NCBI GenBank assembly: GCA_002493005.1 | Contig: DKXL01000029.1 | Span: forward strand, 30,789 to 94,788 | Length of the DNA stretch: 64,000 bases | From: Ruminococcaceae bacterium UBA7127 | Lineage (GTDB): Bacteria > Bacillota > Clostridia > Oscillospirales > Acutalibacteraceae | Direction: 5' to 3' | Shown: positions 16,670-21,616 of the stretch, one piece after another | Numbering within the stretch: position 1 is the stretch's first letter | Layout of the letters: each line of letters starts with the position of its first letter | Notes under the pieces: model-generated | The model's input: only the letters and a program-made list of their open reading frames with translations | Databases searched by the model: none | What the model was told of the DNA's origin: nothing | Made by a program: the position numbers and the translations under genes

Positions 16670-16762
16670 CTTAAGGCTTGATATATGTAAGAATATTTTT
16701 AGAGAAATTGCGGTGTATAATGCAATTTCTCTTTTTTTGTGCGTATATATGGAGGTGAGAAT

Positions 16763-17005
16763 TTGACGGAGCAGGTTTTAATCACGCTTATATCGTTTGC
16801 AGGTACGCTTGTCGGCTCGCTTGTGGGCATATTTACAGCCTCAAGGCTCTCAGACTACCGTATCGGTCAGCTTGAAAAAAAGGTTGATAAACACAATAAC
16901 CTAATAGAACGAACCTATAATCTTGAAGAACAATCAATTCTTCAGGAGGAGAAAATCAGAGTAATAAATCATCGCATTAATGACCTTGAAGAATATCATA
17001 AATAG
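16763..17005 (+). CDS. Phage-like small membrane protein (N-terminal TM + coiled coil), of the type found before holins
   Basis: TTG start after GGAGGTG; hydrophobic N-terminus, then YRIGQLEKKVDKHNNLIERTY..EKIRVINHRINDLE. Confidence 0.75.
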   Translation: MTEQVLITLISFAGTLVGSLVGIFTASRLSDYRIGQLEKKVDKHNNLIERTYNLEEQSILQEEKIRVINHRINDLEEYHK

Positions 17006-17021
17006 TGAGGGGATTGATATA

Positions 17022-17237
17022 ATGAAAAAGAAAATATTTACAAAAGAATGGGTAAAAGCAGCGGCAGTCAGAGCGCTCAAAACCACAGCACAGGCGGCAC
17101 TCGGTGCAATAGGAGCAACCGCAATGATTACGGATGTTAATTTTTTGTTGATTGTTTCCACAGCGGCAATGGCGGGAATATGCTCAATCTTGACAAGCGT
17201 TGCAGGGCTGCCGGAGGTTTCACAAACAGATGAATAG
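17022..17237 (+). CDS. Holin, phage r1t-like family
   Basis: WVKAAAVRALKTTAQAALGAIG...SILTSVAGLPEV; 71 aa, hydrophobic; upstream of an amidase. Confidence 0.85.
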   Translation: MKKKIFTKEWVKAAAVRALKTTAQAALGAIGATAMITDVNFLLIVSTAAMAGICSILTSVAGLPEVSQTDE

Positions 17238-17315
17238 TGTGGAAATCACACTGTCTAAAACTAAAATTTATATTGCCTGCTTTGTTTGCCGCAAGCTGCA
17301 ACGAGCAATGGCAAG

Positions 17316-17385
17316 TTGCCGTTTACGTCTTATCTGCCCACAATAAGGCGTAAGGATTTTTAATTATGATTTGTGGGCGGAAAGG
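17316..17385 (+). repeat. Structured leader element, copy 1 (candidate RNA pseudoknot)
   Basis: Similar to 20150-20216. P1 17323-17332/17344-17353; P2 17333-17343/17371-17381; ends in the AAAGG RBS of the amidase. Confidence 0.75.
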
Positions 17386-17399
17386 TATGAAAAAATATA

Positions 17400-18170
17400 A
17401 TGTCAAAAAAAATTTATTTGAGTCCATCAAATCAATACAGTAACACCTACGCCACAGGCGGCACTAATGAAATGGCTCAATGCGACAAAATTGCTGAAGC
17501 AACTGCAAAAGCATTAAAAAGATGTGGGTTTGAGGTTAAGGTCGGCAAATCCGGAGATACCATGCAAAACCGCTGTGTTGAAAGCGACAAGTATGGTGCA
17601 GATATTCATATGCCGATTCATACAAACGCTTATAACGGAAAGGTGACAGGTGGCACACGCGTTTTTTGTTTAAATTCTAACGGTAAAAAAGCTGCTGACG
17701 CAGTGCTGAAAAATCTTGGTGCAATTTCGCCGGGTACAGCTGACAGCGTTACCTACCAAACAGGGCTTTATGAAATTAATGTACCAAAAGCACTCTCAGT
17801 TTATGTTGAATGTGAGTTCCACGATACCAAAACAGGTTCGGATTGGATACGTGCAAATACAGGCAAAATAGCCGAATCAATCTGCAAAGGTATTTGTGCT
17901 TACTTCGGTGTGTCCTATAAATCGTCCGACAGCGGCAAAAAGGAAGATACGGACACATCATTTAAGCGATATATCGTGAGAATAACGTCGTCAAACGGCG
18001 TAAATATCCGCAAAGGCCCCGGTACAAACTACGAGATTACAGGTGCAATTCCCAAAGGCGGAGCATACACCATTGTTGAGGAAAAATCAGGCGCAGGTGC
18101 CAAAAAGTGGGGAAAACTTAAAAGCGGCGCAGGTTGGATTTCACTCGATTATACAGAGAAGATAAAATAA
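17400..18170 (+). CDS. N-acetylmuramoyl-L-alanine amidase (Amidase_3) with C-terminal SH3-like domain, endolysin-like
   Basis: IYLSPSNQ..NE..IHTNA..YVECEFHD; C-terminal NIRKGPGTNY..WGKLKSGAGWISLDY; no signal peptide. Confidence 0.88.
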   Translation: MSKKIYLSPSNQYSNTYATGGTNEMAQCDKIAEATAKALKRCGFEVKVGKSGDTMQNRCVESDKYGADIHMPIHTNAYNGKVTGGTRVFCLNSNGKKAADAVLKNLGAISPGTADSVTYQTGLYEINVPKALSVYVECEFHDTKTGSDWIRANTGKIAESICKGICAYFGVSYKSSDSGKKEDTDTSFKRYIVRITSSNGVNIRKGPGTNYEITGAIPKGGAYTIVEEKSGAGAKKWGKLKSGAGWISLDYTEKIK

Positions 18171-18204
18171 GATTATATTATCAGTTTTACCGAAAAACAG
18201 TAAA

Positions 18205-18240
18205 CGCAAAACAGACCGTCTTACGACGGTCTGTTTTGCG
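18205..18240 (+). terminator. Intrinsic terminator after the amidase
   Basis: CGCAAAACAGACCGTC-TTAC-GACGGTCTGTTTTGCG 16-bp perfect stem. Confidence 0.8.
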
Positions 18241-18649
18241 ATTGTGTGTTTTATGAAAATGTATGTTTCAATATGAAGCAAACATTTTTGCCAAAATCAA
18301 ATGAATTTCACATTCATTGCTACTTATTATACAACCAAATTTAACAAAATTCAAGGCGAAAACTGACGATTTGTCCTTTTCTAACAGAAAGAACGACACA
18401 TTGCACAAAATATCGAATGCGATTTTGTTGATTATTTTTTTCAAAATTGAGATTTTTCAACTAAATCTTAAATTGACTAAAACGTGCCTGTACAAAACTA
18501 ACAAAAAATGAAGACGTTTATTATGCAAATGTCAGTATTACGAACTTTTATGGCTAAAATAAAGTTTCTAAACTTTACAATAGTCAAATTTTTATTCATT
18601 TTTGCAAAGTCCTGACAATGGGACAGTCGCCGTCTACTGTTCTGAAAAT

Positions 18650-18691
18650 CGAACAAATGTTCTTGATTTATTCTGATATTGCTTATATAAT
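18650..18691 (+). promoter_or_regulatory. LexA (SOS/Cheo) box abutting a sigma-A promoter
   Basis: CGAACAAATGTTCT (18650-18663) versus Firmicutes consensus CGAACRNRYGTTCG; TTGATT(18663)-17 nt-TATAAT(18686-18691). Confidence 0.8.
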
Positions 18692-18763
18692 TAAATTAGG
18701 AGCTAAGAAATGCCCCGTCTTGAGCACCTATATAAAGATTGATGTGGAAGAAAGGAATATTGA

Positions 18764-18970
18764 ATGGATTATTATAATTGGTCACTTGAATATGAAGACA
18801 CAGCAAACTCTATTGCTGATGTAATAGAAAAGTTAAAAGCCTCCAAAAATGGCAAAACTGAAACTCAACGAAAGGAAATTGATTTAAAAATAGCTACATA
18901 TAGAACCTATTACAATGAATGTAAGCAAATTGCAAATCACCTGATGGCAAGATATGAGGGAGTGGGATAA
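18764..18970 (+). CDS. Small helical hypothetical protein
   Basis: 68 aa, GAAAGGA RBS, translationally coupled (TAATG) to the next gene. Confidence 0.75.
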   Translation: MDYYNWSLEYEDTANSIADVIEKLKASKNGKTETQRKEIDLKIATYRTYYNECKQIANHLMARYEGVG

Positions 18971-19266
18971 TGAGAAATGACATAGTTCACTTTAATGATG
19001 ATAACGCAAGACAGCTTTTTTTTGATAATTATAATTTTTTCGGTGCAACAAATGATTCAAGCAGAAGCAAGATGAAGAAGATATTGTTTAAAGCAATCGA
19101 CACCGAGCTTACTGCAAAGCAAAAGAAATGTATGATAGATTATTATCTTATGAATAAAAAGGAGAAAGATATTGCAGCTGAGCTTGGCGTAAACCCATCT
19201 ACTGTCTCGCGCCATATCACGCTTGCTAAGAAAAAGCTCAGGCATATTGCCTCTTATTATATGTAA
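18970..19266 (+). CDS. Stand-alone sigma-70 region 4 / HTH protein
   Basis: LTAKQKKCMIDYY..KEKDIAAELGVNPSTVSRHITLAKKKL; no region 2 in 98 aa. Confidence 0.85.
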   Translation: MRNDIVHFNDDNARQLFFDNYNFFGATNDSSRSKMKKILFKAIDTELTAKQKKCMIDYYLMNKKEKDIAAELGVNPSTVSRHITLAKKKLRHIASYYM

Positions 19267-19269
19267 ATT

Positions 19270-19881
19270 TTATTTTATTTCAAATTCCGGCAAATACCAA
19301 AGCAGAGCATCTTCAGCAGTGGCACCGTTTTTGCACAGATAATTTACTCCGTTAATGCTAACACCGACGCATTTGGCGTCCTCGCTGAAATCGGAGCAAT
19401 AACAGTCCCACGGCGATGCAACAGATTGCAGATAGCTGTAATCGTCGCTTTGTACGGTTGCACCGTTTGAAACAGGTGAAAAGGGAATATATAACGCTTT
19501 GCGATTAATGCAAAGCGTTTTTTCTTTTGCATAATCTGCCGCCTTTTTGATTTGCGAATAAATCTCTTTCATACTGCCCGAGGTGTTTTCCTCTATCAGA
19601 TAATCTTCGTCACTAAAGCTGTTCGGATTGACCTTATAATTTGTGTTGAGAATTATAGCCAGTGCCTTTAGGGCTTCGGTACTGTAGCTTTTATCGTATT
19701 TTGCAGCAAGAAGTGCGCACAATGTTTTGCCGTAATCTTCATTATCAATAGGCTTTTTGGGGGTGTCGGCAGTTGACATTGTACTTGTGCTTGTGTTGTT
19801 ATCACTGCATTTTGCTGCTGCAAAAGGGAGCAAAGCCATAAGAATAAACATCAGAATAAGCGCAATGATTTTTTCCTTCAT
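19270..19881 (-). CDS. Short SpoIID/LytB-like exported protein, probably catalytically inactive
   Basis: N-terminal TM/signal; EALKALAII, YLQSVASPWD and GVSINGVNYLCKNG..L.WY match SpoIID blocks. Confidence 0.7.
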   Translation of the reverse strand: MKEKIIALILMFILMALLPFAAAKCSDNNTSTSTMSTADTPKKPIDNEDYGKTLCALLAAKYDKSYSTEALKALAIILNTNYKVNPNSFSDEDYLIEENTSGSMKEIYSQIKKAADYAKEKTLCINRKALYIPFSPVSNGATVQSDDYSYLQSVASPWDCYCSDFSEDAKCVGVSINGVNYLCKNGATAEDALLWYLPEFEIK

Positions 19882-19947
19882 TATAATACACCTTTATTTC
19901 ATACAAAAAATTAGTTAAACTATTGCCAATTTGTGGCTTAATTATCC

Positions 19948-19976
19948 TTGACATAATGATTTAATTAGCTTAAAAT
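19948..19976 (+). promoter_or_regulatory. Sigma-A promoter giving a ~235-nt 5' leader to the membrane protein gene
   Basis: TTGACA-17 nt-TAAAAT. Confidence 0.65.
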
Positions 19977-20149
19977 AATATATGATTTAATATTTATGAA
20001 AATTACTTAAGTAACTGCTGATTAATTTTGACTGCTAAACAAATGACCGGATTTTGCAGTGAATTATTCAGAATTTGCTTAAATTGCATTTTTCGGATTT
20101 ATACTGCCATTTAAAATTATGTCTGTTTTTAATCGGATATCGGTATAAA

Positions 20150-20216
20150 TTGCCATTTACGCCTTATCTGCTCACATTAAGGTTGTAAATTTTTTATTTA
20201 TTTGTGGGCGGAAAGG
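20150..20216 (+). repeat. Structured leader element, copy 2 (candidate RNA pseudoknot)
   Basis: P1 20156-20166/20178-20189; P2 20167-20176/20203-20212; ends GGAAAGG just before ATG 20219. Confidence 0.75.
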
Positions 20217-20218
20217 CT

Positions 20219-21616
20219 ATGGCAATTATTATGAAAGTAAAACATTCTATTATTCCGTTTATACCGATTGCGCTTGCAATGGCAGTGCTGAAAATTATGA
20301 GTATTTTTGCTGTTGACAGCAACGGACTATTGTTTGGTATGAACAAGATAGGTATTTCATATCTTACCGTGCTTTTGGCATTAGGATTGTTTGTTGTTTG
20401 TGTGCTTCTCAATTTGTTTGACCGCAAGACTGCTCCTGTTTATAAAGTGAAAAAGAATTATATTTCGGGTGTTTTTGCAATTCTTTTTGGACTTTCGGTT
20501 GTATGTTCGTCTTTTATTATCTTAATGAACACCTCAAGGGATAATTCGGATTATTACTTTATGAGTATAATTCTTGCAGCGTTTTCAATACCTGCGTGTA
20601 TTGCTTTTGTAATTATGAGCAAGGCTCATTTTACCGGCAGAACTACAGTTTCGGGTGTTTCTCTGTTGTATATTTTCCCCGCGCTTTGGGGCTGTTGTGC
20701 ACTTGTGTATGAGTTTTTGACCGTAACTAAGGTATCTGTTTCGGCAACAGATTTGACTTCACTGTTTTGCTGCATTTTTATTACTCTCTACCTGTTTTCA
20801 TATGCTATGATTTTATCCAGAGTAAAGGGCAGAAATCCTGTCAAAGCCTGTTTTATCTATGGTCTTCCGGCAGTTGCGCTGTCACTTTCATATGGCGTTT
20901 ATGAGGTTGTAACAGCTGTGTATGAAAATACAGGTGTTCAGACTATAGTTCTTGGCGCACAGTTTGTAATTTTTGCTGTTTATGCTATTTCATTTATTAT
21001 TGAGATGTTCACAGGCACACTCACCAAGGATGAGGTTGAAATCATTGACAGTCTTCCGGAGGAAGAAGATACCTACGAGAACAGCTACATCAAGTCAGGA
21101 GCTTATGACGAGTTGCTCAAAAGCGACAAAAGTAACGATGACAGTGATAAATTAGATTCGTCATATGGATATTTGGGCGATTTTGTAACCGGTTACCAAG
21201 AAGATAATGATGTTCAGTTTTCGGGTCAAAAGCCTGATGTACTTGACAGTGTGATTATGGACTCAGGTTCACAAAAGACTCCTGATTTGGTTGAGGATAT
21301 TCTTGCTCAGGCAGCTGAAAGAAGGTCAGTCGAGCAAAAAAATAACGAGGCTAAAGAGGAAACTGATAATTCTGTGACTGCAAATTCCGAAATTTTGCAG
21401 GAAGAACCAAAATCCGATGCTGCAGCAGTGCCGAAGCCTGTCGATGAACCTAAAGAGGAAAAGGCTGAAATAATTGAACCGATGCCTACAGCAGAGCAGA
21501 AGTTAGCTGAAACTGCAAAAACTGCTGATAATGATTTAAGCAGTGACGATATAATCAGCCGCGACAGATTAAGTCAGATTGACAAACTTTTGGCTGAACT
21601 TGAAAATAAAAAATGA
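20219..21616 (+). CDS. Polytopic membrane protein (~8 TM) with a long acidic C-terminal tail
   Basis: Multiple hydrophobic segments in the first ~265 aa, D/E-rich remainder; start could also be the later ATG. Confidence 0.75.
   Translation: MAIIMKVKHSIIPFIPIALAMAVLKIMSIFAVDSNGLLFGMNKIGISYLTVLLALGLFVVCVLLNLFDRKTAPVYKVKKNYISGVFAILFGLSVVCSSFIILMNTSRDNSDYYFMSIILAAFSIPACIAFVIMSKAHFTGRTTVSGVSLLYIFPALWGCCALVYEFLTVTKVSVSATDLTSLFCCIFITLYLFSYAMILSRVKGRNPVKACFIYGLPAVALSLSYGVYEVVTAVYENTGVQTIVLGAQFVIFAVYAISFIIEMFTGTLTKDEVEIIDSLPEEEDTYENSYIKSGAYDELLKSDKSNDDSDKLDSSYGYLGDFVTGYQEDNDVQFSGQKPDVLDSVIMDSGSQKTPDLVEDILAQAAERRSVEQKNNEAKEETDNSVTANSEILQEEPKSDAAAVPKPVDEPKEEKAEIIEPMPTAEQKLAETAKTADNDLSSDDIISRDRLSQIDKLLAELENKK

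Follow-up and report, generated by a model that had tools for sequence, protein, structure and literature searches.

The leaders of an amidase gene and of a membrane protein gene, both of which lie in the 64,000-nucleotide stretch of DNA analysed here (the window), belong to a large, previously undescribed repeat family of gut and rumen Clostridia, with units of 100-190 nt. We put at roughly 0.55 the probability that these leaders are copies of an interspersed RNA cassette of fixed orientation, mobile or formerly mobile, that replaces the ribosome binding site (RBS) of a gene and whose core serves as a translational gate. Such a cassette would take the last few bases before the start codon, the RBS of the gene being replaced by its own, and would spread by transposition-like events. 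Shown directly are family membership, position relative to genes, orientation, the helices, insertion polymorphism and the survival of the core where an insertion is old. A more far-reaching possibility, on which we would place distinctly less than even odds, is that the family represents a new class of mobile element that integrates at translation-initiation sites, silences the native Shine-Dalgarno (SD) sequence with a hairpin of its own and installs a switchable RBS. Dozens of unrelated genes per genome, phage genes included, would then come under one RNA-level control, through an element that would spread without terminal repeats, target duplication or a recognisable transposase.

Architecture of the element and its two copies in the window

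A full-length copy, of approximately 150-190 nt, consists of a hairpin (H0), a long bulged hairpin (H1) and a core. Within the core, the P1 5' strand is followed by the P2 hairpin, an A/U-rich linker and a 3' strand that forms the pseudoknot with the P2 loop; next come an SD of sequence GGAAAGG and the P1 3' strand, with the native ATG 1-3 nt further on. The start of H0 coincides with, or lies just past, the native SD or the stop codon of the upstream gene. The P1 3' strand occupies the interval between the internal SD and the start codon.

A preliminary description had reported two copies of an element in this DNA, and both are present where it placed them, with approximately 90 nt alignable between them (window positions 17313-17402 and 20147-20233) and no relationship between their flanks outside this alignment. 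The 15-mer that comprises the 3' pseudoknot strand and the SD occurs exactly twice in the 64-kb window and, when up to three mismatches are allowed, gives five matches against 1.33 expected. The extent of approximately 70 nt given earlier was correctly located but too small, as copy 1 includes two additional 5' hairpins and extends upstream to the stop codon of the holin gene (17235). The element had also been said to abut the RBS; instead, the SD is an internal part of it. Of the two ATG triplets after the SD, the second, 14 nt on (17400 in copy 1 and 20231 in copy 2), is the true start codon; the first is part of helix P1 and is out of frame in copy 1. The features of the two copies are as follows.

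17235-17399, + strand: copy 1, full-length (H0, H1 and core), which fills the holin-amidase intercistronic gap and aligns end to end with full-length copies of other species (alignment A7)
17235-17253, + strand: H0 hairpin of copy 1; the TAG at 17235-17237 is the holin stop codon, and the stem covaries in A7
17273-17314, + strand: H1 of copy 1, a long bulged hairpin with compensatory changes (UA/CG and GC/CG/AU)
17322-17354, + strand: P2 hairpin of copy 1 (5' strand 17322-17333, loop 17334-17342, 3' strand 17343-17354), the hairpin of the preliminary description; covariation present
17372-17385, + strand: 3' pseudoknot strand (17372-17380) running into the internal SD GGAAAGG (17379-17385) of copy 1, wholly paired in the minimum-energy fold
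17400-18170, + strand: gene for an Amidase_3 and SH3 protein, served by copy 1, with its ATG 14 nt after the SD
20147-20230, + strand: copy 2, which has the core but neither H0 nor H1 and forms the last part of a 5' UTR
20148-20156, + strand: P1 5' strand of copy 2, pairing at 9 of 9 positions with 20219-20227; P1 covaries in seven of eight pairs
20157-20189, + strand: P2 hairpin of copy 2 (loop 20168-20176); covariation present
20203-20216, + strand: 3' pseudoknot strand (20203-20211) and SD (20210-20216) of copy 2
20219-20227, + strand: P1 3' strand of copy 2, the SD-to-ATG spacer, which holds a conserved non-start ATG
20231-21616, + strand: gene for a 461-residue membrane protein without a Pfam match, served by copy 2, with its ATG at 20231

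It counts against the cassette reading that about half of all copies lack H0 and H1, as copy 2 does, and that copy 1 has lost the P1 3' strand, so that a placed copy does not need all of these parts. H0 was not found by itself elsewhere in the genome and always lies within elements.

Covarying helices and a candidate gate on the internal SD

The earlier proposal of a hairpin whose loop pairs downstream, as an H-type pseudoknot running into the SD, is upheld both by pairing-preserving substitutions and by covariation in homologues. Across 100 distinct homologous cores, 89.5% of cells are paired, a share that drops to 28-53% once the partners are shifted by 1-3 columns. Covariation in these cores scores 0.288, compared with 0.147 for shuffled and 0.03-0.10 for slid controls. 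The two middle pairs of P1 are seen as UA, CG, GC and AU, and P2 shows changes on both sides in all six outer pairs and in five of the six inner ones. The pseudoknot helix is 96.8% paired, with one pair alternating between UA and CG (42 and 23 cells, respectively), and divergent copies contribute further compensations (A-U to G-C and C-G to U-A). In a structure-blind MAFFT alignment of 29 full-length copies (A7), 95.1% of cells are paired, against 35-44% when slid. Many of the pairs are G-U, which is allowed on the sense strand only. The core is accordingly an H-type RNA pseudoknot, in which loop and downstream strand pair and both helices are compensated. Across GTDB families, conservation of the loop, the SD, the 3' strand of the pseudoknot and the first half of P1's 3' strand goes beyond pairing to the bases themselves.

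A second pairing proposed earlier, between a 5' GCC(R)UUU and AAAGGY at the SD, has a better alternative on each side: in P1, where covariation is strong, the 5' strand is joined to the SD-ATG spacer, and the SD pairs with the P2 5' strand. By our own geometric estimate, P1, P2 and the full pseudoknot may be sterically incompatible all at once. In every copy folded, the minimum-energy structure consists of P1 together with a helix that pairs the whole SD, the partner of the SD in this stable fold being the P2 5' strand and loop. Predicted energies are -31 to -36 kcal/mol for the SD-paired form and approximately -15 kcal/mol plus -10 to -13 kcal/mol of pseudoknot duplex for the SD-free form, and the transcript prefix is predicted to fold into P2. 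The P2 3' strand (AUAAGG) is a mimic of the SD, and the P2 5' inner strand is 86-97% conserved, its partner in P2 60-91%.

These predicted structures contain the parts of a gate. The inner strand CCUUAU would pair with the SD mimic AUAAGG and leave the SD free or, alternatively, would extend the pseudoknot helix onto the SD and hide it in a helix of 15-16 bp. P2 would form first during transcription, the SD-paired fold being the stable end state, and the two pairings may act as an on/off switch. The two-state translational switch of the preliminary description thus survives as a possible opposition of the SD-paired fold and P2, with a different partner for the SD from the GCC(R)UUU first suggested. 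The SD and the 3' strand of the pseudoknot hardly vary, so that covariation carries no information on the predicted helix that hides the SD. A separate observation that speaks against the gate is that the SD-paired fold is so stable that translation of essential genes such as cysS and ispG, which the element serves, is hard to explain.

Dispersal, position and insertion sites

The 1.74-Mb genome from which the window derives holds 11-13 copies in a single reading direction. Eight of 36 congeneric species carry the element, with 3-20 copies each, so that its occurrence is patchy within the genus, and in a class-wide sample it was found in 12 of 150 genomes, belonging to at least seven GTDB families of Clostridia. 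One 1.6-Mb metagenome-assembled genome (MAG) has 25 copies with pairwise identities of 62-96%, the highest being reached at unrelated loci, and a conserved 20-mer has more than 118 exact matches in the genome contigs searched. Five copies are present in a cultured carrier, Ructibacterium gallinarum DSM 107454, and the collections of cultured phages and plasmids searched gave no match to the element. Rfam 15 has no gathering-level match in the 64-kb window, none overlapping either copy at E-values up to 10 and none to six full-length copies of other species at E-values up to 1, and solo H1 loci returned nothing relevant from Rfam. The earlier impression that the element belongs to no known class therefore holds at both gathering and permissive thresholds.

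Placement relative to genes is strict. In 117 of 120 copies the start codon of a long open reading frame on the same strand lies 3-11 nt past the conserved 3' motif, and in 80 of the 120 it lies at exactly +8. Many copies in random orientation and position had been named at the outset as the mark of a mobile repeat; the copies are indeed many, but their placement is anything but random. As 44% of full-length copies are intercistronic, the element needs no promoter. The downstream genes, which form an essentially random set, include those for the amidase, argC, panC and others, in addition to cysS, cysK, ispG and genes for a histidine kinase, an amylase, an ABC ATPase and a phage portal protein. 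Copies of the latter kind, together with orthologues in sister species that lack the element, contradict the candidate riboswitch for envelope genes put forward in the preliminary description, and such variety of genes alongside element-free orthologues forms the pattern of a dispersed repeat and no ligand regulon.

Filled and empty sites define where the element lies. Among 24 congeners in which the region upstream of ispG was read, 23 have the native SD, 5 nt and the ATG, and the element stands between SD and ATG in this genome only. At cysS it is present only in this genome and its closest relative, and here H0 and H1 have decayed while the core is retained with compensatory changes in P2, a pattern that points to cis-acting selection at the mRNA level. 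Further filled/empty pairs were found at dtd, panC, an MBL hydrolase gene, rarA and argC. Comparison of these sites places the insertion within a few bases upstream of the native ATG, with constant orientation, and the native SD is usually left stranded upstream of the element. The distribution and the filled and empty sites, which are the only grounds on which mobility is proposed, suggest that the element moves or once moved.

There are no terminal inverted repeats: H0, at the left end, is not an inverted copy of the P1 3' strand at the right end, and the P1 5' strand is internal. Neither the seven filled/empty pairs nor the flanks of aligned copies show a consistent 2-4-nt target-site duplication, and no conserved 4-5-nt target lies directly 5' of the left end, where flanks differ save for an SD-like motif at varying distance. 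A transposase for the element was not found. The Y1 (HUH) transposase PF01797 occurs in two of five copy-rich genomes and is absent from genomes with 20 and 15 copies, one of these an 89%-complete MAG; two of the five element-rich genomes tested lack Y1 transposase and reverse transcriptase, and neither enzyme co-occurs consistently with the element.

The stranded SD may be dealt with by the element. An SD-like motif is present within 14 nt 5' of H0 in 63 of 72 full-length copies, compared with 20 of 72 in a control window. Copy-specific complementarity between the 5' flank and the sequence after H0 amounts to 2.33 bp, against 0.86 bp with flanks permuted (maximum of 2000 permutations, 1.38). 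The lower stem of H0 pairs with the stranded native SD, and one subfamily has a CCUCC anti-SD directly after H0. From these features we infer that H0 would silence the orphaned native SD.

Other assignments for the 5' parts were tried and rejected. The hexamer spacings of a promoter in the conserved 5' parts misfit by eye, and a CRP/Rex-type operator at H0 would have the wrong half-site spacing, with a stem that covaries as RNA. Start-stop or ribosome hopping at the GTG-TGA of H0 founders on a second subfamily that has no stop. H0 pairs with the 5' flank as the P1 helix of a group I intron does, but there is no Intron_gpI match at E-values up to 10, and the stop codons of upstream genes inside H0, together with the conserved internal SD, argue against excision.

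Alternative readings and comparison with known systems

The core could be read as the aptamer of a riboswitch for a metabolite or second messenger, with P1, P2 and the pseudoknot gating the SD, since it is compact and well conserved and combines a pseudoknot and a fairly conserved A/U-rich linker with an alternative helix that sequesters the SD. Signal riboswitches such as the c-di-GMP classes likewise precede diverse genes. We nevertheless regard this as very improbable, because the downstream genes, a phage portal gene and an endolysin-like amidase among them, have no common theme, and gene association is unstable between sister species, the ispG site being filled in only one of 24; association with one pathway across species is not what is seen. 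Identity of up to 96% at unrelated loci of one genome, patchiness in one genus and the lack of an Rfam aptamer match point the same way. An operator for a trans-acting factor, be it an RNA-binding protein, a ribosome or ribosomal protein or a small RNA, that acts on the loop, pseudoknot and SD and co-regulates the dispersed copies, is unlikely rather than implausible. Entrapment at the rpsO pseudoknot by S15 and phage repressors of the RegA type are precedents, and the conservation of the loop, pseudoknot 3' strand, SD and first half of the P1 3' strand across GTDB families suggests sequence-specific recognition. The double duty of these strands as SD, anti-SD and pseudoknot explains the same conservation, however, and no candidate factor was identified. 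Such an operator is moreover compatible with an RBS-replacing cassette, for which it would supply the trigger of the gate and not a replacement.

Phage T7 intercistronic RNase III sites and the Correia elements of Neisseria work by RNA processing, and the long, near-continuous duplex of the minimum-energy fold, together with the intercistronic position of 44% of full-length copies, would fit a comparable role. The P1 and SD helices (25-30 bp with internal loops) would then form an RNase III-type site at which polycistronic mRNA is cleaved and the SD freed, or a 5' stabiliser of the downstream cistron. This is quite improbable, as the outer helix of P2 covaries strongly even though the long duplex leaves it unpaired, a fact for which processing does not account. 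We think it no more probable that the element is purely selfish DNA with no role in mRNA, its helices serving single-stranded-DNA transposition as do REP sequences or IS200/IS605 ends. Its hairpins, strict strand specificity and lack of terminal inverted repeats and target duplication do recall HUH-type elements, but the left flank has no conserved target tetranucleotide, and Y1 transposase is missing from two of five copy-rich genomes. Against DNA-level function stand also the many sense-only G-U pairs and the old cysS insertion, which keeps its core by compensation after losing H0 and H1. It is extremely improbable that the element is a small upstream protein-coding gene or a leader peptide whose translation is coupled to that of the gene downstream. 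Some copies do have a frame of 55-65 codons that opens at a GTG in H0 and closes with a TGA that overlaps the ATG of the downstream gene, but any open frame through the element is found in only 16 of 71 full-length copies, the frames are inconsistent, indels are not multiples of three, and it is the helices that covary.

If the element is indeed a mobile cassette that replaces the RBS, gut and rumen Clostridia would contain thousands of self-contained RBS units, and these would illustrate how a repeat can lodge in the few positions where a gene tolerates change least and yet leave the gene alive. They would provide a natural insulated and gated RBS comparable to synthetic bicistronic and insulator designs, could rewire, species by species, how housekeeping and phage genes are translated, and would constitute a sizeable RNA family missing from Rfam. 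As R. gallinarum DSM 107454 is in culture, the element is experimentally testable.

The element shares features with several known systems. Like MITEs, REP/BIME, Correia and ERIC sequences it is short, non-coding, multi-copy and patchy, is co-transcribed with its neighbours and forms RNA hairpins, but it has none of their terminal inverted repeats or palindromic units, usual target duplication, occurrence in both orientations or unfixed distance to the start codon. With IS200/IS605-derived PATEs it has in common strand specificity, subterminal hairpins and the lack of terminal repeats and target duplication; unlike them, it has no conserved target tetranucleotide and no consistent Y1 transposase, and its right end is fixed at the start codon. 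It resembles translational riboswitch and RNA-thermometer expression platforms, which set anti-SD against anti-anti-SD strands, and the E. coli rpsO pseudoknot operator in that an upstream strand with an alternative partner can pair with the SD and a hairpin loop pairs with SD-adjacent sequence, whereas no ligand or sensor was identified and the copies are dispersed and species-polymorphic and do not belong to one gene family.

Literature searches for a repeat that inserts between SD and ATG, or for a matching motif, yielded nothing beyond an analogy with the REP2 repeats of Neisseria and the IR sequences of Borrelia plasmids, which are dispersed RBS-bearing repeats upstream of open reading frames (reviewed in Delihas, 2011; PMC3184786). 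Common to these and to the element are a length of approximately 100-150 bp, a position immediately upstream of unrelated open reading frames, the carriage of an RBS, extension to the ATG, stem-loops and the lack of terminal inverted repeats (PMC3184786). There is no sequence relationship, the hosts belong to another phylum, and REP2 also supplies a promoter and is not described as sitting between SD and ATG. The element is thus an RBS-bearing repeat of the REP2 type as a concept, and not as a homology family, in that it is an upstream repeat that supplies the RBS and reaches the ATG. Unlike REP2, it often lies between cistrons, strands the native SD on its 5' side and pairs with it, and is built around a covarying core of pseudoknot and SD mimic.

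A family of elements next to start codons

The two copies in the window can be aligned (17313-17402 against 20147-20233; 79% mean column identity over 132 aligned columns) and have unrelated flanks, which bears out the paired element of the preliminary description. The 15-mer spanning the 3′ pseudoknot strand and the Shine-Dalgarno (SD) sequence has exactly two exact occurrences in the window. The features are:

17235-17399: copy 1, full length, with the 3′ strand of the closing helix P1 lost
17400: start of the amidase ORF, its ATG 14 nt 3′ of the copy 1 SD
20147-20230: copy 2, without a recognisable H0, the first of two 5′ hairpins
20231 (or in-frame 20219): start of the membrane-protein ORF, its ATG 14 nt 3′ of the copy 2 SD

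The element is a family and not a pair. BLAST, an nhmmer profile and a covariance model of the element, whose E-values are rough, each recover 11-13 copies in the genome of the window (1.74 Mb, 86.5% complete), with a start codon ahead of every copy in the same reading direction. The genes concerned encode a YlbF-like protein, a histidine kinase, an SdpI-family membrane protein, CysK, an S1-domain protein, IspG, CysS, a secreted amylase, an ABC ATPase, the amidase and an unknown membrane protein. Matches are present in 14 of 36 congeneric species (3-20 strong copies in 8 of the 36), while 24 other families of the order give one weak match in total. In an even class-wide sample, 12 of 150 genomes are carriers, drawn from at least seven GTDB families and with 1-10 copies each. 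Scanned for an exact 20-mer, 185,579 species genomes returned at least 118 stretches; a set chosen in this way cannot reveal variation in the SD or pseudoknot 3′ strand. The matches listed include MAGs labelled Ruminococcus, Oscillospiraceae, Eubacterium, Congzhengia and Ca. Aphodoplasma, and the isolate Ructibacterium gallinarum; among them, a long ORF starts 3-11 nt past the conserved motif in 117 of 120 copies, at exactly +8 in 80 of the 120. A single 1.6-Mb MAG carries 25 copies (62-96% pairwise identity). Two IMG/VR viral contigs match the exact 20-mer, one upstream of a portal gene; the element has no match in cultured phage and plasmid collections or in Rfam.

Several observations concern the surroundings of these copies. 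An XhlA-like gene, an r1t-type holin and an Amidase_3+SH3 gene (16739-18170) form a PBSX-style lysis cassette directly after uvrA and a GyrI-like gene, with no other phage genes nearby. The conserved non-start ATG of copy 1 begins an 18-codon out-of-frame ORF (17387-17443) overlapping the amidase start, because an A-rich run has replaced the P1 3′ strand. A sub-threshold match to the AdoCbl-II riboswitch (18259-18334, minus strand; 24.1 bits, gathering score 36.5, E 0.019), located in the AT-rich spacer 3′ of the amidase terminator, is probably due to chance. Just outside the 5′ end of the window, the contig carries a third copy (C40:30024-30126 in the window's genome, G000); it precedes the S1-domain protein gene, whose 3′ end reaches into the window and terminates at about position 259.

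Anatomy and a candidate translational gate

Counted from H0 to the ATG, full-length copies are some 150-190 nt long, and they comprise H0, a short linker, the long bulged hairpin H1, the core, 1-3 nt and the ATG. The core runs from the P1 5′ strand through the P2 hairpin, an A/U-rich linker, the strand complementary to the P2 loop and the SD to the P1 3′ strand. In the two subfamilies H0 and H1 differ in sequence and share their shape, and 71 of 143 copies lack a recognisable H0.

In a set of 100 distinct cores, pairing holds in 89.5% of cells, with a covariation score of 0.288, against 0.147 for shuffles and 0.03-0.10 for slid controls, in which helix partners are displaced by 1-3 columns; as the relatedness of the copies inflates the shuffle values, the slid controls were relied on. 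In the same cores P1 has two-sided changes in seven of its eight pairs, the two middle pairs occurring as UA, CG, GC and AU. A MAFFT alignment fitted to no structure gave 95.1% pairing over H0, H1, P1, P2 and the pseudoknot, compared with 35-44% in slid controls. There are many G-U pairs, and the structure is therefore that of the sense strand.

RNAfold (11 copies) and RNAalifold (both subfamilies) return an identical most stable nested fold, consisting of P1 and one long helix that joins the P2 5′ inner strand and the entire loop to the 3′ strand and the full SD. In 8 of the 11 copies its stability far exceeds that of shuffled sequence (z -3.5 to -6.9), whereas three divergent copies do no better than shuffles (z about 0 to -0.6). 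The fold leaves the outer P2 helix unpaired, yet this helix covaries strongly, so both arrangements must matter. They differ only in the partner of CCUUAU, the P2 5′ inner strand, which pairs either with the SD-like P2 3′ strand (AUAAGG) or with the SD itself (GGAAAGG); this dual-partner strand is 86-97% conserved, against 60-91% for its P2 partner. The SD-paired state lies at -31 to -36 kcal/mol, and the SD-free state combines a nested part of about -15 kcal/mol with a pseudoknot duplex worth -10 to -13. P2 is computed to form in a transcript ending 5′ of the 3′ strand. As modelled, the element would be an SD switch, its kinetic 'on' state relaxing, or being flipped, to 'off'.

Insertion between native SD and start codon

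Filled and empty sites can be compared directly. In 23 of 24 ispG congeners with the upstream region read, the empty state is native SD, 5 nt and ATG; in the window's genome the identical native SD is followed by a 159-nt element and the identical ATG. The cysS site is filled only in the window's genome and its closest relative, all others having the cysE stop and an SD immediately 5′ of the ATG. Further filled/empty pairs exist at dtd, panC, an MBL hydrolase gene, rarA and argC. The native state at panC and the MBL hydrolase gene is an ATGA stop/start overlap, and the stop codon of the upstream gene now lies inside H0. We infer from these sites and from the distribution of copies that the element is, or once was, mobile; neither target duplication nor terminal inverted repeat was seen in the comparisons.

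At cysS the insertion is older than the divergence of two species that share 89% identity in CysS. H0 and H1 have degenerated in these copies and are no longer recognisable; the loop, pseudoknot strand and SD are retained, and P2 persists with base pairs that differ between the two species. This pattern suggests that the core is under selection in cis and that the 5′ module becomes dispensable later.

An SD-like motif lies within 14 nt 5′ of H0 in 88% of full-length copies (28% in a control window), and an upstream ORF ends inside or beside H0 in 44%. One subfamily carries CCUCC directly after H0, and in several copies the stem extends via the spacer into the native SD. Flank complementarity is copy-specific (2.33 bp, against 0.86 bp with permuted flanks). 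H0 would silence the orphaned native SD together with the GTG at start-codon distance from it.

Individual copies add variations. In the ispG copy (L021, contig C11) the usual P1 sequence is replaced, and the H0 3′ arm is perfectly complementary (8 bp) to both the H0 5′ arm and the SD-ATG spacer, so that H0 and P1 are mutually exclusive there. Subfamily-B copies (e.g., L094, L099 and L112) have a GC-rich 6-mer after the anti-SD that can pair with the H1 5′ base, in competition with H1's own base pairs; it is possibly a second relay from native SD to core. Solo H1-type bulged hairpins, lacking H0 and core, occur in the window's genome roughly 100-200 nt 5′ of other genes:

C35:18286, C8:6073, C2:32046, C6:23722, C56:17106, C38:81273, C31:36721: solo H1 (L234-L239)

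They often lie just 3′ of a promoter-like -10 box, itself embedded in another hairpin. Three sites, one at a contig end, share an identical ~150-nt repeat; none of these loci matches Rfam.

Other readings and the nearest known system

The preliminary description had also proposed a candidate riboswitch. As a pathway riboswitch this was rejected, since the downstream genes are unrelated and ispG and cysS congeners mostly lack the element. A protein-coding element was likewise rejected. L085, L093 and some 14 further copies contain a frame of 55-65 codons that opens at the H0 GTG and closes with a TGA overlapping the ATG of the gene downstream, and gene callers may annotate such frames as small proteins. 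Classification as a classical MITE, REP or PATE was rejected too, and neither a Y1 transposase nor a reverse transcriptase is linked to the element. The closest described concept is the type represented by Neisseria REP2 and Borrelia IR repeats, which carry a ribosome-binding site and extend to the ATG (PMC3184786), the trait that they have in common with the element described here.
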